A DNA stretch of 64,000 nucleotides, taken from assembly GCA_964291295.2 (NCBI GenBank), contig OZ219754.1, positions 768,001 through 832,000 on the forward strand. Reading direction: 5' to 3'. This document shows, one piece after another, positions 1,826 to 62,838 of the stretch. The translations under genes and the position numbers were made by a program. The number at the start of each line of letters is the position of its first letter. The first letter of the stretch is position 1. This stretch comes from an uncultured Candidatus Binatia bacterium (GTDB lineage: Bacteria > Desulfobacterota > Binatia > UBA9968 > JAJDTQ01). Below the pieces are notes generated by a model. It was not told the DNA's origin. It saw only the letters and a program-made list of their open reading frames with translations, and did not search any database.

Positions 1826-2611
1826 ATGAGACTTGCAGAACAGGTCGCCGTCGTCGTCGGCGGCGCCCGCGGCATCGGCGAAGCCATTGCCCATACCTTC
1901 GCCCGCGAGGGTGCAAAGATCATCCTGGTGGACCTGGAGAAGACCAAGCCCGAGCTTGACGGCGTGGTTCGAGCCATCCGGCGGAACGGCGGAGAGGCGA
2001 CCGCACTGACGGCCGACGCCACCGACGCGGCGCAGGTCGAGCGCATGGTGGCCGACGTCGTGAGCCGCTGGGGCCGGCTGGACATCCTCGTCAACAGCGT
2101 CGGCTTCCGCGGCCCCATGGTGCCGGTACACGAGATCACCGAAGAAGATTGGGACGCCGTCCTCGAGGTCAACCTCAAGGCGGCCTTTCTCTGCTGCAAG
2201 GCCGCGCTGAAGGTAATGATGGAGCGGAAGCGCGGCAGCATCGTCAGCATCTCGGGCACCGCCGGGCGCGAAGGCATGGCGCTGCGCGGCTCCCTGTGCG
2301 CCGCCAAGTGGGGCCTTCTGGGACTCACCCAGACCATCGCAAGGGAGGCCGGCCCCTCCGGCGTCCGCGCCAACGTCATCTGCCCCGGCGGCATGGACGA
2401 GGCCGACCTGCGGGACATGTACCGGGAACGGGCGAAAGGACTCGGCGTCTCCTTCGAGGCGCTGGAGAAGAGCGTCCTGGCACAGACCCCGCTGCGGAAA
2501 CACGCCCGGCACCAGGAAGTCGCCAACGCCGCCCTCTTCCTCGCCTCCGACGACTCCTCCCACACCACCGGCGAAGCACTGAACGTCTCGGGCGGCCGGC
2601 TGATGTCATGA
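1826..2611 (+). CDS. SDR family NAD(P)-dependent oxidoreductase
   Basis: GGARGIG, LDILVN and ANVICPGG motifs; GGAGG RBS before ATG 1826. Confidence 0.9.
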   Translation: MRLAEQVAVVVGGARGIGEAIAHTFAREGAKIILVDLEKTKPELDGVVRAIRRNGGEATALTADATDAAQVERMVADVVSRWGRLDILVNSVGFRGPMVPVHEITEEDWDAVLEVNLKAAFLCCKAALKVMMERKRGSIVSISGTAGREGMALRGSLCAAKWGLLGLTQTIAREAGPSGVRANVICPGGMDEADLRDMYRERAKGLGVSFEALEKSVLAQTPLRKHARHQEVANAALFLASDDSSHTTGEALNVSGGRLMS

Positions 2612-2778
2612 GCCGCCCGGGCGGTGACGGACACGCACCGTTGAACCACCAGTGGAAATCTGCGAGACTCGCCCCATGCATGCTGGCATAAGTGTTGCTG
2701 ATACAACCTTATGTGTGGAGTGTATCCCAATTGACCGGAGCGGCAGTGTTGCCGAACGTCTCAGGGTCGGGAAGTCCC

Positions 2779-4026
2779 ATGGGATCGCCTCACAGGCAAC
2801 CTAAGTTGCCGAAATATAATCACAAACTTTCTTCCCCGGGTACTTCGGCGTTCTCGTATCCAGAGCAGGGCATATACCTTGATTATGCTGCGACGACCCC
2901 GGTTGCGCCGGAAGTCGCGCACACGATGGCCAAGTTTCTGACGGCCGACGGCGTCTTTGGAAACCCGCACTCCGTCACCCACCGCTTTGGGCATGCAGCT
3001 TCGGAGGCCGTTGAGGAGGCCCGCGAACATGTCGCGGCGTTGATTGGTGCCGAGGCCGATGACATCTTCTGGACCTCGGGTGCAACAGAGTCGATCAATC
3101 TGGCCATCAAGGGAGCACTGTTATCCCCTGGCGTACACGGCCGGCACCTGCTCGTCTCCTCACTTGAGCATAGAGCGGTACTCGACACCGCACGCTGGCT
3201 CTCCGACAAAGACCTTGACGTGACGTACCTTGCGCCTGATGCGGATGGTTTGATCACACCGGAGGTCGTCCGCGCGGGCCTTCGACCGGACACCGCGCTG
3301 GTCTCTCTCATGCACGTCAACAATGAGGTCGGCACCGTCACCGACATTTCGAGCGTCGCCCGCATGGTGCGGAACAACGGAACACTGCTTCATGTTGACG
3401 CCGCACAAAGTGCCGCACGACTCCCGATCGATGTATCGCTGATGGACGTCGATCTGCTGTCATTGAGCAGCCACAAGATCTACGGCCCGAAAGGAGTGGG
3501 GGCATTGTTTGTGCGGCGGTCTGTTCAGCCGTTGCTTGTGCCTCAAATCCACGGAGGCGGGCAGGAACATGGATTGCGGGCCGGTACGCTGGCGACCCAT
3601 CAGGTCGTTGGCATGGGAGCGGCGGCACGGCTCCTTGACGACTGTCAGAGTAGCGACGCGGAACGAGTGGCAGCCATTGACCGACGCCTCCTTGGCTGGC
3701 TGGTCGGAATTGAGGGGGCAGTCGTCAACGGCAACCGTATCGCACGAGTCCCAGGCATACTGAACATCGCCTTTCCAGGCGTGGAGGCCGAATCGCTGAT
3801 GCTGGCTCTTGACAAAGTGGCGGTCTCGGCAGGCTCCGCGTGCACGGCTTCATCCATTGAGCCCTCACACGTACTGGAAGGACTTGGTGTCACCGACACG
3901 CTGGCACTCTCCTCCGTACGATTCAGCGTGGGTCGCTATACGACGGAGGCGGACGTCGACACCGCTGGACAACGCGTTCATGACGCCGTGGCGGCTCTCC
4001 GGACCATTAGGGGCATTACGGTATGA
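2779..4026 (+). CDS. dndA: Cysteine desulfurase, IscS/DndA-like (start uncertain, 2692-2870)
   Basis: YLDYAATTP, SGATES, HVDAAQ, SSHKIYGPKG (PLP Lys), SAGSAC (catalytic Cys); ATGA-coupled to the dndC-like gene. Confidence 0.85.
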   Translation: MGSPHRQPKLPKYNHKLSSPGTSAFSYPEQGIYLDYAATTPVAPEVAHTMAKFLTADGVFGNPHSVTHRFGHAASEAVEEAREHVAALIGAEADDIFWTSGATESINLAIKGALLSPGVHGRHLLVSSLEHRAVLDTARWLSDKDLDVTYLAPDADGLITPEVVRAGLRPDTALVSLMHVNNEVGTVTDISSVARMVRNNGTLLHVDAAQSAARLPIDVSLMDVDLLSLSSHKIYGPKGVGALFVRRSVQPLLVPQIHGGGQEHGLRAGTLATHQVVGMGAAARLLDDCQSSDAERVAAIDRRLLGWLVGIEGAVVNGNRIARVPGILNIAFPGVEAESLMLALDKVAVSAGSACTASSIEPSHVLEGLGVTDTLALSSVRFSVGRYTTEADVDTAGQRVHDAVAALRTIRGITV

Positions 4027-5195
4027 AGGCATCGACGGATTCCCATACCAGCCGTAGTCGCTTGACGAGTCTACCGACGCGCCTCAACAAGATTGCGGAC
4101 ACGCTTCGAGGCGAGTACGGGCGAAAGCACAGCCATCCCTGGATTGTTGCCTATTCCGGAGGGAAAGACTCTACCCTTCTCCTGCAGATGATTTGGGAAA
4201 CCGTGATGGCGCTGCCGACAGAGCGGCGTCACCGATCCATCCTGGTCGTCGGCAACGACACTCTCGTTGAGTCGCCACTCGTCATTCGACATATGCGAGA
4301 ATCGCTCAAAGTGATCGGAGACGCCGCCGCGGCACAAGAAATGCCCGTCGACATTCGTGTCACCACACCAGCCATCGACCAGACATTCTGGGTCAGTGTG
4401 ATAGGGCGAGGCTACATCCCGCCCACAAGGAATTTTCGGTGGTGCACGGACCGGATGAAAATTCGGCCGACCAGCCAGTTGCTGCGGGACATCGTGAGGG
4501 AGTACGGAGGAGCCTTTCTCCTGATTGGTACCCGCCGGAGCGAATCGCAAAACCGGCAGCGCGGCATGGACCGGCGCAAGGTGTCTGCCGGAAAAGCCAA
4601 TCATCACGACTCTGTAGACGGCTGCCGTATCTTCTCTCCACTTGCCGACCTCGACGATGACGATGTCTGGATGGTCTTGATGCAGCGCCGCCCGCCTTGG
4701 GGTGGCACCCATCGCCACCTAATCACTCTCTATCGTCAGGCTGGCGGGGGCGAATGCCCTCTGGTCATGACCCGGGATGACGCACCATCCTGTGGCACTT
4801 CCTCCCCGCGGTTCGGTTGTTGGACATGCACCGTGGTCGCCAAAGACCGCAGTCTTCGGGGCCTGATCGACTCGGGACACAAGGACGCCACGAAGATGGA
4901 AAGCCTGTCGGACTTCCGCGAGTGGCTCATCGCTCTGCGTGAGGACAACAGCAATCGCCTACCTGTGCGCCGCGACGGTAACCCGCGGAACCGTGCTGAC
5001 GGCTCCCAAGTATTCGGTCCGTTCACCCTAGCCGTTCGTGAAACCATTCTGGAACGACTCCTCGCACTGGAGAAAACGATCGGCGACACCCTCATCAGCC
5101 CGGCCGAGATCGAGTGCATCGAAGATGTCTGGTGGCGTGACAGAATCACCGAAAACGGACGCCTCGCCCTGCTCGAATCCGTAAACGCCCCATGA
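4023..5195 (+). CDS. dndC: DndC-like DNA phosphorothioation sulfurtransferase (PAPS-reductase/PP-loop fold)
   Basis: AYSGGKDS PP-loop, NDTLVESP, GRGYIPP...FRWCTDRMKIRP, GTRRSES, GGECP, RFGCWTCTVV (Fe-S cysteines), GPFTL. Confidence 0.85.
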   Translation: MKASTDSHTSRSRLTSLPTRLNKIADTLRGEYGRKHSHPWIVAYSGGKDSTLLLQMIWETVMALPTERRHRSILVVGNDTLVESPLVIRHMRESLKVIGDAAAAQEMPVDIRVTTPAIDQTFWVSVIGRGYIPPTRNFRWCTDRMKIRPTSQLLRDIVREYGGAFLLIGTRRSESQNRQRGMDRRKVSAGKANHHDSVDGCRIFSPLADLDDDDVWMVLMQRRPPWGGTHRHLITLYRQAGGGECPLVMTRDDAPSCGTSSPRFGCWTCTVVAKDRSLRGLIDSGHKDATKMESLSDFREWLIALREDNSNRLPVRRDGNPRNRADGSQVFGPFTLAVRETILERLLALEKTIGDTLISPAEIECIEDVWWRDRITENGRLALLESVNAP

Positions 5196-6967
5196 CCCGG
5201 GTCACGTCAGAGGTACTGCTTGTGTCCCAACTCTTCCTCAAGGGACGCTTCACCGTGCCATGGCATCAACGGTACTACGACTGGACCCTGGAACAGGTCA
5301 CCGAACTGCTGGTCGACCTGAAGGAGGCTCGCGACGAAGGCCGATCCAGTTATTTTCTCGGGTCCATCATGCTCGTCAAAGGCGAGGATGTCTGGGAAAT
5401 CAACGACGGCCAACAGCGTCTCATCACGCTTTCCCTGCTTTTTGCGGCGTTTGGCCGTCGGTTCGCAAGGAACCGGGAAAGCGACGGTGGCCGCGAGATG
5501 CTCGCATTACGCGTCCTGTTCGACCGTCCTGACACCGCCGTCGATAATTTTGACGATACGACACGCGCAGTACCGCGCATCAAGCCGCCACGTCAGGACC
5601 GATCGCGTTTTACTCAGATTATCCGTGGACTCGATATCGGCACGAACGGCAAACTGACCTCGACCTGGAATGAGGTGGCGCTGTTCGTCAGTGCAATGGG
5701 TTCACCTGAAACCCGAATGTTCTTCGACTTCCTTGTGGAGAAGGTTGAGGTTGGTGTTCTCTACGTCCCGAAGACAGAAGACGCCAACGCCGTCTTCGAG
5801 GCCTTGAACGGGCGTGGCAAACGATTGGACGATGTCGATCTGATCCGGAACCATCTCTACTCATACTTCAGCGATTCTACCGATACACAGCGTCGCCAAG
5901 CTGTCCACACACAGCTTGAAAACGTACTTGCCACCACTCGAAACCCTACTCGGTCGCAAGAGTACTTCCGCTGCTTTTTCCAGTGCAAGTACGGCTATCT
6001 TCAGAAGAAACGATTTTACCGGGATACGCGCGCGAAAATCCGCAGTTCTGTCGGCCGCCAAGATGGAGACCCATACGTCTACTTGCTCATTCATGAACTT
6101 GCCAAACCCGCCAGTGTTGAACTGTTTCGCACCATCAGTGCCACAAACCCGAGCCAGGAACTGCTTGATGCCTTCTGCAAAGCATCCGGGACCACGATGG
6201 CCAAGCGCAACCTGCCCGTTTTCATTCGGGAACTGCGTGGCTACAAGGTCGTTCAACCATTGATGTTCGCGCTACTGCGGCGGTTTGTCGAGGCTGGAGA
6301 TCAGGACCGGCACTCCGTAGCCAAAGCCGCCCATCGGTGCCTCAGCGATCTCTCCTCCTTCGTGATGCGAGTCTCTTTCTGCGAGGTCAAATTCGAACCA
6401 TCCAGACTCGAGCCGGGATTTGCCAATTGCGCCAGGAGAGTCGCCGCCAGCACCAAGGTCACGGATCTCGATATCACGACCGATCTCGAAGAGTGTGACG
6501 ATTTGCCGATAATGGATGACGCGCGATTTATTGCTCGACTCGTCGAAATACAGATGACCGACTCCCGTCGCGCCAAACGCTTGCTGTTCGGAATCATTGC
6601 CGAACAAGAACCGGAAGGCCGTGCCTTCGACTACGAGGGCTGTTCCGTGGAGCATATCTTGCCGCAGTCGAAAACCTATTGGCCCGGTTGGACCGGCTTC
6701 AAGTCGGCCGGACCCGACCTCCGGGACTGGGTTGCCCGGATCGGCAACCTGACACTGCTGGGCGACAACGTCGCCCATGCTCGGCACAGTTTCAACGCCA
6801 ACTTCGCCGCCAAGAAGCCAGATTTTGAACACAGCCCATTTGCAATGACACGCGACATTGCAAAACATGAGGACTGGACGCCAACGGCAGTGGCCGAACG
6901 CTCAAGGGACCTTGCAAAGGCGGCCAGTCAGGTATGGTGCTTTTCCAGATCCGCGGCGCGAGGATGA
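5192..6967 (+). CDS. DUF262 + DUF1524/HNH nuclease (GmrSD/SspE-like)
   Basis: VPWHQRYYDW, FLGSI, DGQQR, FEALNGRG.L..DLIRN (DUF262); C-terminal VEHILPQ...IGNLTLL...N (HNH-type DUF1524). Confidence 0.88.
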   Translation: MTRVTSEVLLVSQLFLKGRFTVPWHQRYYDWTLEQVTELLVDLKEARDEGRSSYFLGSIMLVKGEDVWEINDGQQRLITLSLLFAAFGRRFARNRESDGGREMLALRVLFDRPDTAVDNFDDTTRAVPRIKPPRQDRSRFTQIIRGLDIGTNGKLTSTWNEVALFVSAMGSPETRMFFDFLVEKVEVGVLYVPKTEDANAVFEALNGRGKRLDDVDLIRNHLYSYFSDSTDTQRRQAVHTQLENVLATTRNPTRSQEYFRCFFQCKYGYLQKKRFYRDTRAKIRSSVGRQDGDPYVYLLIHELAKPASVELFRTISATNPSQELLDAFCKASGTTMAKRNLPVFIRELRGYKVVQPLMFALLRRFVEAGDQDRHSVAKAAHRCLSDLSSFVMRVSFCEVKFEPSRLEPGFANCARRVAASTKVTDLDITTDLEECDDLPIMDDARFIARLVEIQMTDSRRAKRLLFGIIAEQEPEGRAFDYEGCSVEHILPQSKTYWPGWTGFKSAGPDLRDWVARIGNLTLLGDNVAHARHSFNANFAAKKPDFEHSPFAMTRDIAKHEDWTPTAVAERSRDLAKAASQVWCFSRSAARG

Positions 6968-7099
6968 TCCACGAAACTGCATGAGCTTGTAGTTCCCGGG
7001 TCGTAGCGCAAATTCGATGACGAAGTGCATTTCACACGCGGCTATCGCGACGTGTCAACGAGATGCGTCCGAAACGACCGTCTCTGCGTGAATCTTCGA

Positions 7100-8518
7100 A
7101 TGACGCACAACGCTCAGGCTCTCCGGCATGCAGGGGAAGATCAACTCAGGCTTCCCGCACCCCTGCACAACTACCAGTGGGAAGGCGTTGCATTCCTGTA
7201 CCAGTCCACCGCTGCCCTCCTTGCTGACGAGATGGGACTGGGGAAGACCGTCCAGGCGGCGGTCGCCTTGGCACTTCTTCTCAATGGTCAGAAGGGGATC
7301 GACCGAGCCCTGATCGTGGCACCGGCTTCGTTGACCCTGAACTGGATGTCCGAACTCGCCACTTGGGCACCGTCACTTGCGGCGCGACGGCTTCAGGGTG
7401 GAGCCGCCAGCCGGAGGGCCTCCTACCTGTTGCCGATACCTGTCCTCGTTTCCTCTTATGAACAGATCCGTCAGGATGGACTGGACCAGATTCCCAGAGA
7501 TACGTTCGATCTCGTGATCCTGGACGAGGCACAACGCATCAAGAACAGGAACTCGGCAACGGCGCTTGCCTGCCGGCTGCTACCGCGAAAACGTGCGTGG
7601 GCACTGTCCGCGACACCGCTCGAAAACGACCGTGAAGACGTCGCATCGATCCTGGCTTTCCTGGATCCCGATGTTCGTCGAGACCCCGATGCAAGGCGTC
7701 TGAAGGACAGGCTTGAGGCGATGATGCTGCGGAGACGCAAACGCGAAGTACGTGCCGAACTGCCACCCGTCATCGTACAGGATCTCAACCTGGAGCTTTC
7801 CACGCCGCAGAGAATTGCCTATGACGATCTGTGGACGGGGAGGGAGACACAAATCGACAAGGAACGATCGAGCGATTTTCACGCCGCCATGCTGGGACTC
7901 ATTACGCGACTCAAGGTGATCTGCAACTACGATGTGGCAAGCGGTGTTTCATCGAAACTGGAGGCCCTCATAGGCATTTGCGAAGGCGCCGGGCCATCGG
8001 CACGGTTGCTGCTGTTTTCGCAGTTCGTTCAGACCTTGCGACGAATCTCCCGTTCGATCGGAATACCTCACGACCTTTTGACCGGCTCCATGTCGACAAC
8101 CGAAAGACAAGTTTCGATCGACCGGTTCAGGACCGGCCAAACCCCGAGAGCCCTGTTGGTTTCCCTTCGCGCCGGCGGCGTCGGCCTTAACCTCGGGGAA
8201 GCCACCCACTCGGTTCTGTTCGACCGATGGTGGAACCCAGCGGTTGAGTTCCAGGCAATCTACAGAGCGCACCGCTTCGATCGGGAAGAGCCCCTGCATG
8301 TCATTCGTTTCGTGGTCCGAGATTCGATCGAAGAGCGAATTGCTTCGGTACTCGACCGGAAAGAGGCCCTGTTCGATGAGATCGTTGAATCTGCAGGAGC
8401 GGCACGGGGCCGACTCACCCAGCGGGAACTGATGGAGATCCTGGAACTCGTGGAGGGCAATCGCCCGCCCCCCACTCATGCAACCAAAGGAGACGAAAAG
8501 GATGGCGAAAATCGTTGA
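7100..8518 (+). CDS. Minimal SNF2/SWI2-family DEAD/DEAH-box ATPase
   Basis: LADEMGLGKT, DEAQRIKN, LSATPLEN, FSQF, AGGVGLNL, WWNPA, RAHR motifs; no accessory N-terminal domain. Confidence 0.9.
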   Translation: MTHNAQALRHAGEDQLRLPAPLHNYQWEGVAFLYQSTAALLADEMGLGKTVQAAVALALLLNGQKGIDRALIVAPASLTLNWMSELATWAPSLAARRLQGGAASRRASYLLPIPVLVSSYEQIRQDGLDQIPRDTFDLVILDEAQRIKNRNSATALACRLLPRKRAWALSATPLENDREDVASILAFLDPDVRRDPDARRLKDRLEAMMLRRRKREVRAELPPVIVQDLNLELSTPQRIAYDDLWTGRETQIDKERSSDFHAAMLGLITRLKVICNYDVASGVSSKLEALIGICEGAGPSARLLLFSQFVQTLRRISRSIGIPHDLLTGSMSTTERQVSIDRFRTGQTPRALLVSLRAGGVGLNLGEATHSVLFDRWWNPAVEFQAIYRAHRFDREEPLHVIRFVVRDSIEERIASVLDRKEALFDEIVESAGAARGRLTQRELMEILELVEGNRPPPTHATKGDEKDGENR

Positions 8519-9326
8519 GTACCGCGACATACCCCTCGACGACCTGGTGATTGGTCTTGGGCAAGTGCGGACGGACAATACCGGTGCCGGGGTTGAGGAA
8601 CTTGCGGCGAGCATCGAATCCCAGGGTCTGCTTCAACCGATCGTCGTCTGCGAGGCGACAAAACCCGAGAAATGGGAGATCCTCACCGGTCAGCGGCGCT
8701 TCCTCGCTCACAAGATGCTGAAACGAGAGACCATTTCGGCTGCGGTCCTTGACGGTCGTGTCGGAGAGGCACAGGCCAAAGCGATCTCGATTACTGAAAA
8801 CCTGATACGGCGCAAGCTCTCGGGCAAGGAACTCAAGGACGGGATCCTTTATCTGTATAACATCTACGGCAGTGTGAAGGATGTGGTCAAGACAACAGGC
8901 CTGCCTAATCGTGAGGTGCGGGACTACGTGAAGTATCCCCGGCTGGCGGAACCACTGAAGGACATGGTCGACGAAGGAAAAGTGGATATCAATGCCGCCC
9001 TTCGTGCCCAGGACTCGGCAACGGACGACGACGGTGTGGTCCATACCGAGGATGCCCTTGCCCTGGCAAAAGAGATGGCGTCGATGTCAGGAGCTCAACG
9101 CAAGAAGGTGGCACAGGACCGGAAAAACAACCCCGACAAACCAGTCGCGGACGTGATAGAGGATGCGAAGTCCGGGGCCAGAGTCATCCAGATAATTGCA
9201 GAAGTGACACTGGATACGCATCAAGCGATTCGGACGGTTGCACGGGAAGAAGGTATGAACCAAGGAGAAGCAACCGTCTGTCTGATCGAGGAGGCGCTGA
9301 ACGGCCGAGGGCTTCTGGAGCGGTAG
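8502..9326 (+). CDS. ParB/Spo0J/Srx-family protein (N-terminal CTPase-like domain, HTH, possible C-terminal RHH-like tail)
   Basis: ELAASI..QGLLQPIVV, ILTGQRRFLA (GxxR box), ENLIRRKLS; AAGGAGA RBS. Confidence 0.85.
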   Translation: MAKIVEYRDIPLDDLVIGLGQVRTDNTGAGVEELAASIESQGLLQPIVVCEATKPEKWEILTGQRRFLAHKMLKRETISAAVLDGRVGEAQAKAISITENLIRRKLSGKELKDGILYLYNIYGSVKDVVKTTGLPNREVRDYVKYPRLAEPLKDMVDEGKVDINAALRAQDSATDDDGVVHTEDALALAKEMASMSGAQRKKVAQDRKNNPDKPVADVIEDAKSGARVIQIIAEVTLDTHQAIRTVAREEGMNQGEATVCLIEEALNGRGLLER

Positions 9327-9331
9327 CTGTC

Positions 9332-10042
9332 ATGTTGCCAGGCCTGAGCCCTCTGGAACTGGGGCGTCTCCGGATGTCTGTCGGTTACGGGCAGCACAAG
9401 AAGGGGCGTCTCCTCTCGCCGACCGAAGTCGGCATATTGCTACAGCGGGCGTGCAACGCGGGCAGTTCGCTTGACGAATGTGCCAGGGAGATACGAATCG
9501 ACGCGACGGGCCTCCGTCGTTTCCTGCGTATTCTTGATCTTCCGGACGACATCCGACACTTGGTCAGTTGGGGTAGCCCTCGAGATGCTGTGTCGTTCTC
9601 CTGTGCCGCAGAGTTGGCCCGAATTCCGGGAGCCGACGACCAGCGCACGGTTGTCGAAGCAATACTCGTCAACGGGATGAACAGCAAGGAGGTCCGACAG
9701 GTCGCGCAACTTCACGAACGTTCGGGACGACCGGTAAGCAAATGTGTGGAAGAAGTCCTCCACATGAGGCCAACGATCGAACGGCGTTACGTTTTCATCG
9801 GCACCATCATCGACGAGAGTGTACAGCAAGCCCTCGCCGGACTCCCACAAAGAGAAAGAGACGCACTGCTGGCGGCGAGCGTGGAGAAAATCGGCCTCGA
9901 GGGGGCATCCGGACGACTTGGGTCCAAATTTTTCACCTTGGTCGGGGAGGACAGATTCGGCGCGTCAATGGAGCGTGTCGGCAAGCAAGAGATTGAGGCT
10001 CGGCTACGCGCCCATGTCGCGGGGTGTATCGAGAGTGTCTGA
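9332..10042 (+). CDS. Hypothetical protein resembling the HTH/helical C-terminal half of ParB, without the CTPase domain
   Basis: LSPTEVG..L......SLDECAREI......LRRFLRILDLPDDIRHLV...VSFSCAAELARI...DQ..V...I...GM follows the ParB HTH pattern; 5 bp after parB and overlapping the next gene. Confidence 0.6.
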   Translation: MLPGLSPLELGRLRMSVGYGQHKKGRLLSPTEVGILLQRACNAGSSLDECAREIRIDATGLRRFLRILDLPDDIRHLVSWGSPRDAVSFSCAAELARIPGADDQRTVVEAILVNGMNSKEVRQVAQLHERSGRPVSKCVEEVLHMRPTIERRYVFIGTIIDESVQQALAGLPQRERDALLAASVEKIGLEGASGRLGSKFFTLVGEDRFGASMERVGKQEIEARLRAHVAGCIESV

Positions 10043-11057
10043 CTCGGTCGTTGACGTCCGGGAGAGCGGGAGCGTCTGCCTTGGCGAAACAGTCGTGTGT
10101 GACGGGTTCGCAAACGGCTACCGGTTTCGTGTTCAGACTCATGTCCATGAAGACCACATGGGTGGATTCAACAAGAGCAAAGGCCTGCAGGAGTTCTTGC
10201 TGAGCCCGGAGACCTACGCGCTGCTCATCGCCGAATACAACGCGGATCTGGAGTACCGCGAGAATTTTCAACCCCTCGAACGCGGCGTAGCGCATGTATT
10301 GGAAGAAGGCTCCACGCTGCGTCTGGTTCCATCAAACCACATGCTCGGATCATGCCAGGTCGCCCTCGAATTGCCCGACGGCCTCCGGATCGGGTATTCC
10401 AGCGACTTCGGCTGGCCCCTTGATGAGGTCATCCAGGTCGATGAACTGGTCGTAGACAGCACCTATGGTAACCCTCACAGCGTCCGCGGTTACACGCAGG
10501 ACCAGGCGGAGGCATGCTTGTCTGAAATAGTGTGTACAAGACTGCGGCACGGTTCGGTCCATATACACGCCCACTCTGGAACCATCGAACGCACCGTACA
10601 GATACTTGGCGACAACGTGGGTGTTCCCCTTCTGGCCACCGAGCAGCTTATCCGGCGCGTCCAGGTATACCAGCAGCATGGTCTCGCACCCGGGGTACTT
10701 GTTCCACTCGATTCAGACGACGGTAGGCATGCCGTCCAACAGCGTTCATATGTGCGGCTCTACTCGAAGGGCGACGGTTTCAAAAACGAAAGGGTCGAGG
10801 GGACAATGGTCACCTGTAGCGCCTACATGGTTGACCGAGATCATCCACTGAAAGTCTTCTCGGATCGGGCCTGCCGAGTGGCACTGTCGAACCACGCTGA
10901 TTTCGAAGAGACCCTTGCCTATGTGGCGGCAACCGGAGCGCGAACGGTCGTCACCGACAACACGCGAAACTATGGCCGTGATCTGGCAATCGCGATCAAC
11001 AATCGCCTGCCCAACGTTCGCGCGCTGCCCTCGACGAACCAATCCGAAAGGGACTGA
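10035..11057 (+). CDS. Metallo-beta-lactamase fold, beta-CASP-type nuclease
   Basis: THVHEDH, NHMLGS, YSSDF, DSTYG, LSNHADF motifs; GTG start overlaps the upstream stop. Confidence 0.8.
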   Translation: MSDSVVDVRESGSVCLGETVVCDGFANGYRFRVQTHVHEDHMGGFNKSKGLQEFLLSPETYALLIAEYNADLEYRENFQPLERGVAHVLEEGSTLRLVPSNHMLGSCQVALELPDGLRIGYSSDFGWPLDEVIQVDELVVDSTYGNPHSVRGYTQDQAEACLSEIVCTRLRHGSVHIHAHSGTIERTVQILGDNVGVPLLATEQLIRRVQVYQQHGLAPGVLVPLDSDDGRHAVQQRSYVRLYSKGDGFKNERVEGTMVTCSAYMVDRDHPLKVFSDRACRVALSNHADFEETLAYVAATGARTVVTDNTRNYGRDLAIAINNRLPNVRALPSTNQSERD

Positions 11058-11083
11058 CGGCGGTCCCACGGCCCACGGCCTTT

Positions 11084-12064
11084 CTACACGTTCACCCGTT
11101 TCATGTCGCGTGTGCGGTTGCCGGCGGCGGCAGCGTAGGGGAAGATGGCGTCGAGCCGTTGCAGGTCTTCGGCGGTGAGTTCGACGTCGATGGCCTTGAC
11201 GTTCTCTTCCAGGTGCGCGCGGCTCTTGCTGCCGGGGATGGGGATGATGTCGGGACCTTGGGCCATGAGCCATGCCAGGGCGAGCTGGGTGGTGGCAATG
11301 CCCTTGTCCCTGGCGACGGCGTCCACTTGGGTCAAGAGATCCAGGTTCCGCTCGATGTTGCCGGGTTGGAGACGGGGCTGGTGGCGGCGGCCGTCGCGTT
11401 CGGAAAGCTGGTCCAGACTGCGCACGGCACCGGCGAAGAAGCCCCGGCCCAGGGGCGAGTAGGCCATGAGCCCCATGCCGAACTCACGGCAGGTCTCGAT
11501 GTTGCCCTGCTCGGGGTCCCGCGACCACAGCGAGTACTCGATCTGGAGCGACACGATGGGGTGGACTTTCCGGGCGCGCCGTATGGAATCGGCGCTGGCC
11601 TCGGACAGGCCGATGTAGCGGCTCTTCCCCTGCTCCACGAGCCGCGCCATGCCGCCCACCGACTCCTCCACCGGAACACCGGGGTCGATGCGGGACATGC
11701 AGTAAACGTCCAGGCAGTCGATGCCCAGCCGCCGGAGGCTCTCCTCGCAGGTCCGGATCAGATATTCGGGCGAGCCGCCGCCGTCGAGGCCGGTTCCGTC
11801 CTGGGCCCGCGGGCTGCCCGATTTGGAGTGGATCACCACCTGGTCGCGCCTGCCCTTGATGGCCTTGCCGATGAGCACGTGGTTGTGTCCGTCGCCGTAG
11901 CTCGCCGAGGTGTCGAGCAGGTTGAGGCCCAACTCGAAGGCCCGGTGCAGCGTGGCGATGGATTCGTCGTCGTCGCGCGCTCCGTACATGCCCGACATGC
12001 TGAGGCAGCCGAGCCCCAGGGGCGCCACCTTGTAGTCGGTGGTGCCGAATTGGCGGTATTCCAT
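11084..12064 (-). CDS. Aldo/keto reductase
   Basis: LGLGCLSMS, LDTSASYG, SLQIEYSLW, AYSPLGRG, IPIPG. Confidence 0.92.
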   Translation of the reverse strand: MEYRQFGTTDYKVAPLGLGCLSMSGMYGARDDDESIATLHRAFELGLNLLDTSASYGDGHNHVLIGKAIKGRRDQVVIHSKSGSPRAQDGTGLDGGGSPEYLIRTCEESLRRLGIDCLDVYCMSRIDPGVPVEESVGGMARLVEQGKSRYIGLSEASADSIRRARKVHPIVSLQIEYSLWSRDPEQGNIETCREFGMGLMAYSPLGRGFFAGAVRSLDQLSERDGRRHQPRLQPGNIERNLDLLTQVDAVARDKGIATTQLALAWLMAQGPDIIPIPGSKSRAHLEENVKAIDVELTAEDLQRLDAIFPYAAAAGNRTRDMKRVNV

Positions 12065-12175
12065 CAGTGATCTCCCCTGTCGCGGCTCAAGCCGGCCGGC
12101 TCCCGGCACTGTCGTGGAGGCCGGGCGTGTGCGCGCCCGTTCCGGCCAAGGTTGTTCTTGCATCCAGGACCATCG

Positions 12176-37509: not shown

Positions 37510-40500
37510 ATGAGCATCCCTCCTGGCACATTTGTCCGTCTCAAGAGCGACCCCGATCGCGCCGGCGTTCTGGAGCAGGGCGAAAAACGGATAAGTGGCT
37601 CGCGGTTTGCCCCGGTAAGGTTCCCGAACGGGCAGATAGAGTGGTTGCCGCTCTCGGCACTGGAGCCCGTTCCCTCTGCATCCGAAAGCCCTTCCGACCT
37701 CTTTGCCGCAGGGCAGTTCGTTGGACCGAACTGGCTGCGCCGCAAGCTGACCCAACTGCGCGTCACCGGTAGGCTGAGCGATGTGGTCTACAGCATGGAG
37801 GCGACCGAAACAGACTTCTACGCCTACCAGTTCAAGCCGGTCATCAAGATGATGAATTCGCCCACCGATGCCCTGCTGATCGCGGACGAGGTCGGCCTCG
37901 GCAAGACGATCGAGGCCGGCCTCGTCTGGACAGAACTTCGCGCCCGGCTCGACTGCGACCGTTTGCTGGTGATCTGTCCCAAAACCCTGTGCCAGAAGTG
38001 GCAGGACGAACTCGACCGGCGGTTCGGCATCAAGGCGGAGATCGCAGGCCCCCAAGAGCTTCTTCGGGCTCTCAAGCGCAACGGCGAGGGCAAGAGGAAG
38101 GCCTATTCGTTGGTATGCAGCATGGGACTGCGCCCGCCGCGTCATTGGAACCACGACGAGTCGCAGACGGAAGGCGGGTACGGCTCCACTCGACGCGAGT
38201 TGGCGCGGTTCCTCGACGAGGCAAGCGATGGCGAGCCTTTGATCGATCTCCTGGTGGTCGACGAGGCGCACCACATGCGCAACCCCGAGACCTTGCTCAA
38301 CGATTTCGGGAAACTGGCCAACTCCGTCGCAAGCCATCGTCTGTTCCTGTCGGCCACCCCCATCCACCTTCAGAACCGCGACCTTCATTCGATTCTGACC
38401 ATGGTGGATCCGGATACTTTCGAGTTCGAGAATACCCTGCACGAACTGATCGAAACCAACGCGCCCATCATCGCCGCCCGGGATCGACTGCTGCAGGGGG
38501 CTTCGCCAGCCGAGGTGCTGGAGATGTTGGCCGAAGCGCAGGGGCACGAAATCCTGAGGGAGAGCAAAGCCTTGGCCCAGCTTCGTGAGGAACTCGCCAG
38601 GACGAACGGCGTGGACTTCGATCGCACGAAGCGGTCGGAGTTGGCCGCCCGCCTGGAACAAGTCAACCAACTCGCGAACTACGTCACTCGGACACGCGCG
38701 CGTGATGTGCAGACGGCCAAGGTCATCCGCGAACCCAAGGACCCCGTGCTGGAGATGAGCGACGCCGAGCGCTTCTTTTACGATGAGATATCCGCGGTGG
38801 TGCGGGACTATGCCTTGGACCGGGATGTGAACGCGCCCTTTCTGCTGGCTACACCGCAACGACTGCTGTCATCAAGCCCGGCCGCAGCCTCCGCCTACTG
38901 GGCCGGCATGCCAGGCGACGACGAAAACGAAGAACTCGACTACGACATGTCGGACCATTCGGATGAAGAACGCCCCCTGACCGCGCAGATCGCCGAAAAG
39001 ACACGCTCTCTTGACATGACGGGGCAACTCACCGAAGCGGACACCAAATACCGGCTACTGATCGCCGAACTGCGACAACACTGGCGCGCCGAGGCCGCCG
39101 CCAAGATCATCGTTTTCTCCAGCTTCAAGTCGACCTTGCACTACCTGCGGGATCGACTTCGCATGGATGGCATCAAGACCGAGCTCCTGCACGGCAGCGT
39201 GAAGGGGCCACGCGCGGAAATCCTCGCGCGGTTCAGGGAGAAACACGATATCCGCGTATTGCTCTCCTCCGAGGTCGGAAGCGAGGGTGTGGATCTGCAA
39301 TTCAGCTCCATCGTGGTGAACTACGACCTGCCATGGAATCCCATGCGCCTTGAGCAGCGTATCGGCCGAGTCGACAGATTGGGCCAGCAAAAGGACAAGG
39401 TGACCATCCTCAACCTGATCTACGGCGACACCATCGACAAGCGAATATACGAGCGCCTGTTCAAACGCCTCCAGACCGCACGGATCGCCTTGGGCGAACT
39501 GGAATCGGTTCTCGGTGAGCCGATTCGCCAGATGACGGCAAAGCTGCTGGATCCCAGGCTGACCGTTGAACAGAAGGATCAGGCCATTGCTCAGACAGCC
39601 CAGGCACTGGAGAACCAGGAACAGGAACAGAGTCGCCTGGAGTCCGAGGCTGGATCGCTCGTCCAGCACGGTGACTACATCATCGAACGCATCGCGGAGA
39701 GCCGGGATCGGCAACGTTGGCTCAGTGCCGAGGATATATTGATATACATGCGTGATAGCATATTGACAAATTTTCCGGGCAGTGTCATCGAGTCAAGCCC
39801 GACCGGTTCGGACACCTATCGGATCCAGCTCTCATCCAAAGGCACTCTTGAATTCAATCGATTTCTTCAGGATCGCCGTCTCAGAGGTACGACTCGAATC
39901 TCGAGCGGCGACATGCGACAGCGGTTCCGGTTCACGCCGTCGGTGGTGCAGAAGGACAGGAGTGTAGAGAGCATCTCGCATTTGCACCCGCTGGTACGGT
40001 TCGCCACCGAACTGGACCGCCGGGACGATACCGTCCGGGATGCAAGGGCCGTGGCGGCAAAGATTCAACTTAAGGACGTTGACGGGCTGAAGGACGAGTG
40101 TGCATCCGGGCTGTATGTGCTTGCTGCGCACCGCTGGATCATCGGCAGTGCCGGCCACAGGACGGCGAACGTTCGCATCGGATACACCGGTGCCTGCATC
40201 CTTACCGGCACCCTGATTGAAGCCGACCTCGCCGAGAGGATGATGGCGGCCGCAGCCGCGCATGGCTACCCTGTACCGAACGCGGGCAGTCACAGCGGTT
40301 TGGCCAAGGCAAGCACGACACTGAAGACCGTGGTTGAACCGGAACTCGACCGGCGCTTCGAGGAATTCATCCGTCAAACGCAGGACGCGACCGAGGACCG
40401 TTTCGCCATTCGATCCCAGGCTTTGACGCGACACTTCGAAAAGAAAATCGATAGTTTGGAGCAAACGAGAAGCGAGCTTAACGATGACGCGTCACGGGCG

Positions 40501-40680
40501 AAGAACGAGGGGAAAGCCCAAAGGGCGGCCCAATTAAGCAACCTGGCGATCGCTCGGGAGACCAGGATCGAGAAGTTGAAGATGACTTGGCGATCGAAGG
40601 AAGAAGAGATGAGCAACGCGCGTAAGACCGTGCCAGATAGATCGGACGTTGGCTGCCTCCTGCTTCAGGTGGAGGAATAG
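37510..40680 (+). CDS. Large SNF2-family helicase (RapA/DrmD-like)
   Basis: [60 protein letters not shown]; C-terminal coiled coil. Confidence 0.9.
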   Translation: [1056 protein letters not shown]

Positions 40681-44482: not shown

Positions 44483-45385
44483 ATGCAGGCAGTCTTGAAT
44501 TTCGACGAGGTGGTTCTGGCGGTTGACGAGAACACAACCTCGGGCGTCGTTCCGTTCAAATCGCAGCTCCTGAAATGGATCGGGAACAAACAGCGCTTCG
44601 CGCATGAGATCATTTCATTTTTCTCCAGCCGTTTCCGGATGTATCATGAGCCGTTTCTCGGCTCTGGAGCCGTACTCGGGGTACTGGCGCCCCGTAGGGC
44701 CGTAGCAGCGGATAGCTTCAAGCCGCTCATCGACATCTGGAAGACATTGCGGAGCGATCCCGAAATGGTCAAGGATTGGTATCGAAGCCGCTGGCTGGAA
44801 GCCCAAGAGGGCGACAAGGTCTCTCAGTATGAGAAGATAAAAGCGCGATACAACGAGAGAGCCAACGCGGCGGATTTCTTGTTCCTGACACGCGCAGCCT
44901 ACGGTGGGGTGGTCCGTTTCCGCAAGGCGGACGGCTACATGTCGACACCTTGCGGGATACATGAACCGATCCACCACGGTTCGTTCAGCCGTCGGGTGGA
45001 CGAGTGGTGGAAACGGGTTCGTGGGACCGAATTTCATCATCGGGAATATGAAGAGTCGCTAAAGTGCGCGAAAGATGGAGACATCGTGTACTGCGACCCC
45101 CCATACAGTCACAGCCAGGCAATCCTGTACGGAGCCCAAGGGTTCTCTCCCGACGACATGTTCCGCCAGATTGATGCGGCAAAACGGCGGGGAGTGTTTG
45201 TCGCCCTAAGCCTCGATGCGTCGAAAAAGTCCGGAGGCACGAGCTGCGATTACGATATTCCACCTGGCCTCTTTGCGCGCGAGGCGGCCGTGAACTGCGG
45301 GCGATCCATGCTCAAGCGTTTTCAGATGGTTGGAAAAACACTGGAGCATGAAGTCGTAACCGATCGTTTGCTGCTTACACACTAA
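44483..45385 (+). CDS. Dam/D12-class N6-adenine DNA methyltransferase
   Basis: LKWIGNK, YHEPFLGSGAV, VYCDPPY. Confidence 0.92.
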   Translation: MQAVLNFDEVVLAVDENTTSGVVPFKSQLLKWIGNKQRFAHEIISFFSSRFRMYHEPFLGSGAVLGVLAPRRAVAADSFKPLIDIWKTLRSDPEMVKDWYRSRWLEAQEGDKVSQYEKIKARYNERANAADFLFLTRAAYGGVVRFRKADGYMSTPCGIHEPIHHGSFSRRVDEWWKRVRGTEFHHREYEESLKCAKDGDIVYCDPPYSHSQAILYGAQGFSPDDMFRQIDAAKRRGVFVALSLDASKKSGGTSCDYDIPPGLFAREAAVNCGRSMLKRFQMVGKTLEHEVVTDRLLLTH

Positions 45386-60028: not shown

Positions 60029-62838
60029 TCATACTCGAAACACCTTCATGGCCTCGTCGCCGAGGTGATTGATGACCTTGACGGCGATGCGGCCGGAGGC
60101 TGGGCGCGGGAACGGGCGTGAGACGTCGCTGTTGAGCGTGGCCCAGGCGTCGGCGTCGATCTCTGCCTTCAGTGTCGTCTTCAGCGCCTTGTAGGGGTTG
60201 TTCGCTCCCAGGAAGTAGGCGTGGCGGACGAAAAAACTCTCCTCGTTGTAGTTGGTGTCCACGAACCAGCAGGCGATGCCGTCGGCGCCATCGCTCCGGA
60301 TCTCTCCGGTGTTGGGGTGGAAGACATCCACTCCCTTGATCCGCACCCGGATGTTGTCGGCGTCGTCTTCCAGGATATCGATATCGGGCTCGCCGAAGAT
60401 GACGAACAGGTTGCCGTTGCCGGTTTTCCTGAGGTCGTCGGCCATGTGCAGGTCGGCGTTCATGCGCGCCTTCAGCACCGGGATGGGTCCCAGTTTATCG
60501 AACTCGGCGGCGTGGGCTTCGTAGCTGAAGGCGCAGGCGATCAATACGTCGAAGCCGGCGTCGGCGGCTTCACGTGCGGCGGCCACCAGGTCGGGCCGCG
60601 TCACGGTGCCGAACTCCGGGCCGATGAAGACACCGGCCCGGCGCGTGGCGGCGTTCTCGCCGCCACCCTCCACATAATGTCCCTTGGCGCAGACGTAGTG
60701 GCCGGGCCAGGGCGTCAGCGACGAGAAGGCGATGCGGTCCTCCTTGTGCGCCTGCTGCAGGCCGGCGGTCTTGAGATTCTCCAGGATCATTTCGACAAAT
60801 TTCGGCGCCTCGTCGTAGCCGGGCTCCTGGTCAGCGACTCCGGTGACGAGTTCGTCATACTCGTCCAGCACCAGCGTCCGGTGCGGCGCCAGGCTTTCGA
60901 CCGTGAAAGGACCGGCGACGCGGATGCGCGCGTTGTCAACATGGGGCTTGTCGTAAAGGTATTCGTATTCCGCCTTGGCGGCGATGGAGGCGTCGATTTC
61001 CTTCTGCCGGGCGATGCGCGCCTGCCAGAAGGCGGCGTGCGCGTCCACGGCATCGCCCGGCCAGTCCTCCCCGGTTTCGCGCGCGTTGGGGGGGGGGGGG
61101 GGGGGGGGGGTACTTCCCACTCCTCCCACGTCTTTTCGAGAATGCCGTTGAGCCGGGCGCGGAGAGGCTCCAGAATCTTCTGCCATTTCTCCCAGATCAC
61201 GTCGATCTCGGCGTTGTCGGCAATGGACTTGAGGGTGATGTGAGGCACACGCTCGTAGACGAAACCCTGGCGGATATCGCCTCCCGTTGGCGCTGTCGAC
61301 GGCGCCCGTCCTGCGATCTTCGCCTCTTCTTGTTGCCCCTCGGGGCTGTCGGCAAGCAGATACCAAGGATAGCGCGCGCCCATGATGCGGGCACGGGCCA
61401 AGGCCAGAGCAACACGGGAGGTATCGATGGTGATCCAGCGCCGGCCCCACTGCTCGGCGACGTAAGCGGTGGTGCCGGAGCCGCAGGTGGGGTCCAGCAC
61501 CAAGTCGCCGGGGTCGGTGGTCATGAGGATGCAGCGTGATACCGGATTTGTCGATGTCTGTACAATGTAGGACTTTTCAATCTCCGGTCCGGTGTCGCCC
61601 CAGGAATTGGAAATCTCAAAAGCCGGATAGTCATCGTGGTAATACTTTGCACGAAGGGCCGTTCTGTCAGGATGGATCCTGGATGCCTTGCAGAGCCTTT
61701 CAAATCCGACTGGCGAATACCGCCAACTTCTCATTGGCGGTATTCGCCAGTCGGATTTGAAAACCCTTCTCGGCTCATGATCCCCGGAAGCCATCGAATG
61801 CACTGGAAGTTTCTGATAAGGCCGGGACATTTCCGGGCATTTGGACGGATCCCTGCGTTCTTCTTTGGTCATGGGGCGTCTGGTCACGCCATCTTCCATC
61901 TCCAATTGATTGTACATGGTCGTGTCCAATACCTTGTCTTCCAGCAATCTCCGGAACTTGATTGCATCCGAACTCCTGCAGTACCAGACAATGAAGTCCG
62001 ATATGCGCTTGACAGAGTTCTGCTGTGTGGTACCGCTGCTCGTTCGATAAGTGATGAGGCTTACAAAATTCTCCGCCCCGAACACTTCATCCATCAACAA
62101 CCGCACCCGGTGGACGTTTTCATCGCCGATCTGAACAAATACTGATCCGCTTTCCGACAGCAATTCCCGTGCCGCCGTGAGCCGATCGCGCAGATAGCCA
62201 AGGTACGAGTGGACGCCGTCGCGCCAAGTGTCGCGAAAGGCCTTCACCTGCTCGGGTTCGCGGGTGATGTGGGCGGCATTGCCGTCCTTCACGTCGCGGC
62301 TGGTGGTGGACCACTGGAAGTTGGAGTTGAACTTGATGCCGTAGGGCGGGTCGATATAGATGCATTGCACCTTGCCGCGCAGGCCTTCGCGTTCCGCCAG
62401 CGACGCCATCACCCGCAGGCTGTCGCCCAGGATCATGCGGTTCGACCAGTTGGCGTCGTGCTGGTAGAATTCGGTGCGCGCATCTTCGTTCGGCAGGCCG
62501 TTGAAAGCGGCAAAGAGATCGGGCTGGATTGGCGGTTCCTCCCCCCGCCGTTGCTTCGTCTGCCGCAGCAGGTCGTCGATCACGACCTTGGGGTGCACCT
62601 TCTCCTGGATGTAGAGCGGCGGCGCCTGCACCACGAGGTCGGCCGCATCCTGCGCTTCCTTGCCGCGCCAGACGAGTTGCGGATCGAGGTCGCGGTTGCG
62701 GCGCTCATAGGCTACTCGGACCGGCACCTTTTCATCTTCGGACAGGATCGTATGGTACTCCGCGGTCGGGATGTTGCGCCGCGCAGCATCGCCGTGGATC
62801 AGCGTTTCGACCGCCTTGGACTTCTTGCCGCTCGCCAT
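60029..62838 (-). CDS. mod: Type III R-M methyltransferase Mod (beta class), frameshifted at a C23 tract
   Basis: YIDPPYGIKFNSN, DPTCGSGTT, YERVPHITLKSIA, RVAGPFTVES, IAVKVINHLGDE; ORFs 60787-62838 and 60029-61450 join at the homopolymer. Confidence 0.88.
61088..61110. repeat. G23 homopolymer (C23 on the mod coding strand)
   Basis: Read directly. Confidence 0.9.
61698..61762. repeat. Perfect 29-bp inverted repeat with a 7-nt loop inside mod
   Basis: tttcaaatccgactggcgaataccgccaa-cttctca-ttggcggtattcgccagtcggatttgaaa. Confidence 0.9.

Follow-up and report, generated by a model that had tools for sequence, protein, structure and literature searches.

The stretch of DNA analysed here (the window, 64,000 nucleotides long: positions 768,001 to 832,000 of contig OZ219754.1 in assembly GCA_964291295.2) comes from an uncultured Candidatus Binatia bacterium. 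Close to its start lies a triplet of genes for a cysteine desulfurase, a short homologue of the DNA phosphorothioate (PT) protein DndC and a DUF262-DUF1524 nuclease, arranged head to tail on the forward strand:

2779 to 4026, + strand: dndA/iscS-like class-V cysteine desulfurase, 415 amino acids (aa) from the ATG at 2779 (Pfam Aminotran_5, PADLOC, NCBIfam)
4023 to 5195, + strand: short DndC, a PP-loop ATP pyrophosphatase and [4Fe-4S] sulfurtransferase by family, 390 aa (TIGR03183, PADLOC DndC)
5192 to 6967, + strand: DndI/HEC-06-like protein with a DUF262 domain (ParB-like nucleoside triphosphatase, NTPase) and a DUF1524 domain (HNH), 591 aa (GmrSD_N, GmrSD_C)

At both junctions the start codon overlaps the preceding stop in the sequence ATGA, exactly at 4023-4026 and 5192-5195, as an earlier note on this stretch, made from the letters alone, had pointed out. 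The left end of the triplet is less sharply defined: the open reading frame (ORF) of the desulfurase is open from a GTG at 2692, candidate starts extend from there to 2806, and 2779 is the first ATG, so that the triplet begins at 2779 or 2692. The desulfurase matches Pfam Aminotran_5 (4e-82) and, about equally well, the PADLOC models for SspA (1e-143) and DndA (3e-140). Because this class-V enzyme stays below the curated cutoffs for both DndA (TIGR03235, 374.6 bits versus 480) and IscS (NF010611, 469.3 bits versus 548), we refer to it as dndA by context only.

The assignment of the second protein is more specific. It passes the TIGR03183 equivalog cutoff for DndC (337.9 bits versus 290.4), and PADLOC prefers DndC (5e-109) by a wide margin over BrxP (5e-10) and SspD (5e-6, 24.5 bits). 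An alignment of 68 diverse DndC sequences, including 24 distant representatives at 35-47% identity, places the PP-loop SGGKDS at residues 45-50 with S45, G47, D49 and S50 invariant. Cysteines 141, 266 and 269 are invariant as well, and C245 and C257 nearly so; going by the PT literature (PMC10853773, PMC11662687), the ligands of the [4Fe-4S] cluster are presumably among these five. The alignment thereby confirms that the protein keeps both the PP-loop and the Fe-S cysteines that the earlier note had ascribed to it. The same note had called the protein compact. This is correct relative to the models, of which the protein spans positions 11-341 (TIGR03183, 447 positions) and 11-375 (PADLOC DndC, 481 positions), but it is not a distinctive trait: a Mesorhizobium plasmid encodes an annotated DndC of 355 aa, 49.7% identical to ours, within a cluster of cysteine desulfurase, DndC, an AAA ATPase in the place of DndD, and DndE. 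Since so short a DndC occurs inside a canonical DndC-DndD-DndE cluster, we rejected the idea that length marks a new class of DndC.

A cluster-level search for homologues returned 5716 representatives at E<=1e-3, the best 120 of which all measure 359-399 aa at 66-87% identity. In a library of representatives clustered at 50% identity, the lengths vary from below 200 aa, in the case of fragments, up to 1248 aa, with the majority at about 350 to 670 aa. No full-length match in this library exceeded 49% identity, and values of 53-69% were confined to fragments of 165-327 aa; in the other protein collection the same DndC has thousands of relatives at 66-87%. An AlphaFold2 (AF2) model of the protein (predicted local distance difference test, pLDDT, 88.5) has its nearest folds in adenosine phosphosulfate and phosphoadenosine phosphosulfate (APS/PAPS) reductases and in the [4Fe-4S] thiolases TtuA, NcsA and LarE. 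Sequence searches of the PDB with the protein and its profile gave nothing meaningful (best E 0.12), and neither these nor fold searches yielded a DndC or TdpC structure with which the model could be compared.

The third protein carries GmrSD_N (DUF262, 8e-26) and GmrSD_C (DUF1524, 2.5e-18). The motifs DGQQR and EHxxP, already spotted in the earlier note, stand at residues 72-76 and 487-491 (EHILP) and are invariant in all 53 members of the family alignment, in which VPWHQRYYDW (22-31), the extended NDGQQR, EH..P, N519 and N535 are invariant or nearly so. Searched against PDB sequences, the family profile matched DndI (9JFL) over both domains (8e-30), SspE (2.5e-17) and an 818-aa DUF262 protein (8e-17), with no match to BrxU at E<=1. 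An AF2 model of the nuclease (pLDDT 91.2), submitted to Foldseek, matched DndI (E 1.4e-16, template modelling score, TM, 0.65), SspE (7e-13, TM 0.46/0.36) and BrxU (6e-5, TM 0.33). By profile and by fold, DndI is thus the nearest solved relative of the nuclease, and SspE and BrxU are further away. Among PADLOC models, which come without a curated cutoff, two HEC-06 models rank first (PDLC04155, 3e-65; PDLC04157, 6e-64, nearly end to end with residues 3-582 on model positions 6-555 of 558), followed by "Orf5" (3e-46), a label that may stand for DndI, and mREase_IV (3e-12), and the SspE models cover the N-terminal residues 20-88 only (2e-10). Given this partial match and the lower profile and fold scores, an SspE-type effector was rejected. 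The suggestion of the earlier note that the unit crosses the Dnd/Ssp classification therefore does not hold: the nuclease is closer to DndI than to SspE, and a DUF262-DUF1524 effector native to Dnd, in IscS-DndBCDE-DndI, has already been published. According to the accessible text of that work, DndI defends together with IscS-DndBCDE, its ATPase is stimulated by PT, and it is toxic to cells lacking PT (PMC11662687).

To see the triplet in other genomes, we scanned one genome per species for dndC, which gave 572 confirmed loci, and examined the best 80 of these (numbered with the prefix L below). Neighbours were searched in the 80 loci by tblastn (E<=1e-5), and ORFs were clustered in the 80 loci plus the window, 81 in all; some of these are cut contigs. 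In 75 of the 80 loci the nuclease gene is the immediate downstream neighbour of dndC; these include some partial cases (L012 at a contig end, L047 with a 5% remnant, L054 with 57% coverage, L079 displaced). The immediate upstream neighbour is dndA in 66. ORF clustering recovered full-length nuclease genes in 73 of the 81 loci and dndA in 66. With the nearest in-frame start, the four-base overlap of start and stop recurs at 50 of 73 dndC-nuclease junctions and at 44 of 66 dndA-dndC junctions, and the gene order is found under at least 11 phylum labels, a recurrence that exceeds chance. Pairwise distances correlate more strongly inside each of two gene sets, the triplet (Spearman 0.64-0.66) and a four-gene module that follows it in the window (0.63-0.82; see below), than between the two (0.23-0.52), so that there are two co-inherited blocks. 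The triplet is therefore a real, co-inherited unit of a Dnd-type writer and a DUF262-HNH protein without linked DndD or DndE. It is probably also co-translated; the translational coupling proposed in the earlier note is supported by the recurrent overlaps and the order.

DndD and DndE were sought by tblastn (E<=1e-3) with single Mesorhizobium queries, 10 kb to each side of dndC. DndE was found in none of the 81 loci by this one-query search, which is insensitive for so small a protein. Weak DndD-like matches occurred in three of the 81, and those in L001 and L059 fall within strong matches to CxC/Pbe-type ATPases. The partnership of DndC with adjoining DndD and DndE was thus not encountered within 10 kb of dndC. 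This absence could suit a reading in which the short DndC makes no backbone PT at all, and is instead either the enzyme of another thio-modification (of a base, a nucleotide or RNA) or a remnant without activity. The structural neighbours of the protein, among which tRNA thiolases and LarE are as prominent as PAPS reductases, would agree with such a role, and so would the accessible text of a sponge metagenome study in which PT genes are enriched "even though not functionally complete" (PMC5099237). We consider this reading very improbable: the protein scores above the equivalog cutoff, its PP-loop and the DndC-specific CxxC dyad (266/269) are invariant, a DndB-family gene is linked to it in 31 of the 81 loci, and dndC is an intact ORF in all 81 loci, at 57-87% identity.

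The position after dndC is not occupied by the same gene everywhere. Five loci have no match to the nuclease and keep an intact dndC, four of them with dndA. In L035 (11240-13006) the slot holds a methyltransferase-HNH fusion, in L049 (11163-12845) a DNA methylase-Mrr fusion, and in L013 (12040-14256) a helix-turn-helix (HTH) protein, an HNH protein and an ABC-type (AAA_21) ATPase. In L075 a DndB gene follows dndC directly, and L058 ends before the slot. In L047, with its 5% remnant, unrelated metabolic genes fill this place. The other nuclease genes in L013, L035 and L049 show the behaviour expected of an effector slot.

We also predicted the structure of DndC together with the nuclease, using both family alignments. 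The pair scored 0.74, and the best of three controls scored 0.00; among solved complexes 116 of 157 attain this mark, among mismatched pairs 2 of 215. At least 96% of contacts are common to the runs, and the partner has a pLDDT of at least 82. The predicted interface comprises the C-terminal helix (residues ~359-389) and residues 115-120 and 148-160 of DndC, which face residues 124-151, 305-328 and 365-373 of the nuclease. PDB searches with DndC returned no like complex among solved structures by sequence. As a prediction, the model supports binding, and writer and nuclease probably sit in one complex.

Taken together, these observations point to a DndD/E-independent PT writer, consisting of DndA and the short DndC, which would be coupled translationally and probably physically to a DndI/HEC-06-like NTPase-nuclease that discriminates between marked and unmarked DNA. 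On the present sequence evidence we give this reading a probability of roughly 55%. The cysteine desulfurase would take sulfur from cysteine as a persulfide, as its family does, and the short DndC would activate the backbone phosphate with ATP and swap a non-bridging oxygen for sulfur on host DNA, acting without DndD or DndE in the manner reported for TdpC. The DndI-like protein may scan DNA by means of its DUF262 NTPase and nick or cut it with the HNH domain. By analogy with DndI, PT marks would make the nuclease spare self DNA, and unmarked incoming DNA would be attacked. Writer and nuclease would be made from one coupled message, for which the overlapping start and stop codons and the gene order are in plain view, and would then join in the predicted complex. 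A bolder version of this scheme takes DndC and the DndI-like protein as one writer-reader holoenzyme, whose single NTPase/HNH subunit both guides DndC in place of DndD/E and restricts unmarked DNA, forming a selfish, addictive cassette that has reached at least 11 phylum labels with interchangeable second-layer nuclease modules. We offer this version tentatively, as possible rather than probable. If true, it would describe a backbone-modification counterpart of the combined restriction-modification enzymes.

Several points weigh against a DndD/E-independent writer coupled to a PT-sensing nuclease. That this family synthesises PT is itself a prediction from sequence. The closest DndC outside the family with a known context, the Mesorhizobium protein at 49.7% identity, sits beside DndD and DndE, and our search for these two genes spans only 10 kb per side, so that copies elsewhere in the genomes may exist. 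The predicted interface is less conserved than the rest of either protein (majority fraction 0.56 versus 0.74 in DndC and 0.46 versus 0.56 in the nuclease), and conservation therefore gives the predicted complex no independent support. The PT-sensing Y25 in the N-terminal hydrophobic patch of DndI aligns with a near-invariant histidine, H25, which follows a near-invariant W24. Furthermore, the best PADLOC family of the nuclease is HEC-06 (219 bits, versus 157 for "Orf5" and 37 for SspE), and HEC-06 defends E. coli alone, without a PT writer, according to the accessible text of its description (bioRxiv 10.1101/2024.01.29.577857). The earlier note had named a grouping with stand-alone GmrSD-like proteins as evidence against a PT-dependent unit, and in the PADLOC ranking this is in part what we see; the profile and fold searches point to DndI.

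This likeness to an enzyme that defends alone (3e-65 at best) is also the starting point for a different explanation, in which the nuclease is a PT-independent, stand-alone GmrSD-like or HEC-06-type enzyme that happens to share a defence island with an orphan epigenetic writer made of DndA and DndC, beside which it lies. Defence genes do cluster, and the window has other restriction-modification genes. A chance neighbour would, however, hardly adjoin dndC in 75 of 80 loci, overlap it by four bases at 50 of 73 junctions and be inherited with it, nor would it be expected to pass the complex prediction. By profile and fold the nuclease is also closer to two PT-sensing enzymes than to BrxU. We find this explanation improbable.

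In the window, the triplet is followed directly by four further genes on the same strand, which make up the four-gene module mentioned above (7025-11057):

7025 to 8518, + strand: SNF2-family helicase core, 497 aa as an ORF; the start may be at 7100
8478 to 9326, + strand: protein with a ParB N-terminal domain, 274-282 aa (Pfam ParB_N, TIGR00180)
9332 to 10042, + strand: HTH protein with weak likeness to ParB-HTH and DUF7119, 236 aa (Pfam scores below cutoffs)
9819 to 11057, + strand: putative nuclease with a metallo-beta-lactamase (MBL) fold; ORF from 9819, true start probably at 10014-10095

The SNF2 gene (Pfam SNF2-rel_dom 1.5e-43, Helicase_C 9e-18; C-terminal regions of PADLOC DpdE and ZorD) and the ParB gene (Pfam ParB_N 3e-13; TIGR00180, 62 bits versus a cutoff of 58) were each found in 43 of the 80 loci. 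The HTH gene (HTH_ParB 7e-4 and DUF7119 5e-4, both below cutoffs) was found in 44, and the MBL gene (Lactamase_B_2 2e-4 and the ligase-associated exonuclease model TIGR04122 2e-12, both below cutoffs) in 42, mostly with about 77% of the ORF covered. Against plasmids, tblastn with the ParB_N protein returned only generic partition ParB at 25-33% identity. The apparent overlaps between the SNF2 and ParB genes (8478-8518, 41 nucleotides) and between the HTH and MBL genes (9819-10042, 224 nucleotides) are probably due to over-long ORF calls, with later in-frame starts at 8502 and at 10014-10095.

What follows the triplet varies. The four-gene module stands alone in 37 of the 81 loci, is joined by a DndB-family gene in 6 and is present in part in 4. 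Another 21 loci have a GIY-YIG nuclease (~110 aa) with a DndB-family protein (~430 aa), 4 have a DndB-family gene only, and 9 have neither module. In total, the four-gene module occurs in 43 loci, including the window, a DndB-family gene in 31, and both in 6. The DndB-family call is based on Pfam DndB (1e-22 to 1e-29) and PADLOC DndB (3e-16), and the protein carries DGQHR. The pair of GIY-YIG nuclease and DndB comes after the triplet in loci that lack the four-gene module, for example at L008:12940-14584; further cases are L014, L017, L018, L021, L023, L031, L037, L039, L051, L053, L061, L063, L065, L066, L068, L077, L080 and others. Two of the loci otherwise counted as having neither, L001 (9734-11934, - strand) and L059 (13082-15279), contain a third kind of accessory module, a Pbe/CxC-type ABC ATPase with a homologue of a "DNA modification system-associated small protein"; PADLOC names the L001 ATPase PbeC (3e-174). 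The accessory state shifts 25 times along the DndC tree, and the modules have therefore been swapped often. The notion of a minimal three-gene unit put forward in the earlier note thus describes the evolutionary core well, but not the locus as it usually occurs, with a four-gene module or a DndB-family gene attached. In functional terms, the SNF2-ParB-HTH-MBL genes would be a separately inherited, exchangeable accessory module and probably form a second nuclease or translocase layer.

Two other genes recur nearby. An AAA_14+DUF4143 ATPase (PADLOC candidate PDC-S01, 3e-98; for example L002:18247-19458, - strand) appears near the island in 10 loci, without a fixed position or strand. A protein of ~460-690 aa with a weak Methyltransf_23 match (for example L005:13504-14880) also occurs in 10 loci, no more than 10 kb from the triplet.

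Of the 81 loci, 68 carry either an accessory module with a nuclease or a gene of the DndB family, and 4 more have a partial module; the restricting could be done by these downstream genes (SNF2-ParB-HTH-MBL, GIY-YIG with DndB, or the Pbe type). The DUF262-HNH protein would then be a part of the writer, an NTPase and nickase that replaces DndD/DndE (or SspC/SspB) and brings DndC to DNA. The predicted DndC-nuclease complex (0.74 versus 0.00 for the best control) and the lack of DndD/E within 10 kb are compatible with this role, and ParB-superfamily proteins do recur beside PAPS-reductase-type enzymes, as DndB does with DndC, according to the accessible text of a reappraisal of Dnd systems (PMC10853773). 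We nevertheless regard it as unlikely. Nine loci have the core without a recognised module, some of them being cut contigs, and the five loci without the nuclease keep dndC intact, four of them with dndA. In addition, every characterised relative of the protein (DndI, SspE, HEC-06, BrxU) is an effector.

Phyla are intermingled on the DndC tree. Its phylum labels need 23 changes, compared with a least possible number of 10 and a mean of 46.4 after shuffling; the tree was built by a quick method, and its rows are metagenome-assembled genome (MAG) bins. Branches with good support alone require 6 or more changes for Pseudomonadota and 5 or more for Acidobacteriota. The island is shared by transfer among many phyla. 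The DndC of the window groups with three Binatia MAGs (L002-L004) and one Bryobacterales contig. In the three MAGs the whole seven-gene island has the same two neighbours, a dehydrogenase gene and an aldo-keto reductase gene, whose products are 83-85% identical to those encoded at 1673-2611 and 11084-12163 of the window. The island therefore predates the divergence of these genomes. Ahead of the reductase gene, L003 and L004 contain some 600 additional bases. Lineage names among the carriers, such as Poriferihabitaceae and Porisulfidus, point to a sponge-associated consortium, in agreement with published work on PT genes in sponges (PMC5099237, PMC6790972, PMC7848895).

The whole block of ~8.4 kb is an island of lower guanine-plus-cytosine (GC) content: windows inside the seven genes have a GC fraction of 0.55-0.62, and those wholly outside 0.65-0.71. 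A Pfam scan identified the flanking genes as a short-chain dehydrogenase and an aldo-keto reductase. We found no transfer RNA gene in the 64 kb, no integrase and no convincing direct repeats at the flanks; since neither a tRNA gene nor convincing repeats mark them, the borders are undefined beyond the shift in GC. A scan of 2400-11400 for promoters and terminators performed no better than shuffled sequence (2 versus a mean of 2.4, and 8 versus 7.8). Elsewhere the window encodes a second, larger SNF2-family helicase (37510-40680, + strand, ORF of 1056 aa) that is positionally unrelated to the island, a D12-class adenine methyltransferase (44483-45385, + strand), and an N6_N4 DNA methylase (60787-62838, - strand) adjoining an ORF with a weak restriction-endonuclease domain (62854-63933, - strand), so that the window holds further restriction-modification genes. 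Annotation outside the island relied on greedy calls of long ORFs and is incomplete; 19 of 31 such ORFs have no Pfam match, probably because they are wrong-frame ORFs in high-GC DNA.

In print the triplet is mentioned only in passing. Our literature search found no paper that characterises it, and the supplements of related papers may list such loci. PT systems are at present classed as Dnd, Ssp, Tdp or BREX type 4, and in every class but Tdp the sulfurtransferase depends on an ATPase and on a partner that binds DNA, according to the accessible parts of two articles (PMC12914056, PMC12707154). In tdpABC, the first of these states, tdpC alone is needed for PT synthesis, and the survey reported there required a P-loop NTPase as neighbour (PMC12914056). 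The reappraisal of Dnd systems is centred on DndD/E, and the word GmrSD is absent from its accessible text (PMC10853773). In sponge Thaumarchaeota, dndA-, dndB- and dndC-like genes have been described, the "dndB-like" member of which has DUF262 and DUF1524, as far as the accessible texts go (PMC6790972, PMC7848895).

If the triplet makes PT without DndD and DndE, it would represent a second such pathway, and the first with a predicted interaction between writer and reader. The family is large, with 572 confirmed loci in species-representative genomes and 5716 protein-cluster representatives, and as a two- or three-gene cassette it can be tested easily in E. coli. It may also explain the sponge PT systems described as "not functionally complete" (PMC5099237), which may be complete and of a different type, and the same may hold for the thaumarchaeal dndA, "dndB-like" (DUF262, DUF1524) and dndC genes (PMC6790972). 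Because it has spread across phyla, the triplet can serve to trace gene flow inside a single consortium.

Among known systems, IscS-DndBCDE-DndI of Salmonella enterica Cerro 87 (PDB 9JFL) resembles the triplet in combining a Dnd-type writer with a DUF262+DUF1524 protein of ~590 aa that carries DGQQR and HNH. The triplet operon differs in lacking DndB, DndD and DndE. Its nuclease gene overlaps dndC, whereas the gene for DndI sits with dndFGH; the two nucleases share only ~17-18% identity, and the PT-sensing Tyr25 is replaced by histidine. A writer-nuclease complex is predicted for the triplet, whereas none is reported for DndI. TdpABC, reportedly described by An et al. in 2025 in Nat Chem Biol, contains a DndC homologue that makes PT without partners of the DndD/E type, as the triplet would do by analogy; the restriction partners there are TdpA and TdpB, in place of a DndI-like protein. 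SspABCD-SspE likewise pairs a PT writer with a PT-sensing DUF262-DUF1524 nickase, and the desulfurase of the triplet scores about as well as SspA as it does as DndA. The triplet writer is, however, of the DndC type (24.5 bits as SspD), SspB and SspC are missing, and SspE, with 771 aa, is the more distant relative. HEC-06, a GmrSD-like protein, matches the nuclease over its full length and shares DGQQR and EHxxP, which are needed for HEC-06 defence; in the accessible text it is defined as embedded in Hma systems and works without a PT writer, whereas the triplet gene is fixed beside dndC (Payne et al., bioRxiv 2024). Finally, the type IV enzymes GmrSD and BrxU share the DUF262+DUF1524 architecture and are the most distant relatives of the triplet nuclease (no PDB profile match at E<=1, TM 0.33, mREase_IV 3e-12). 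Since these enzymes cut modified DNA, such an activity would be self-defeating beside a writer.

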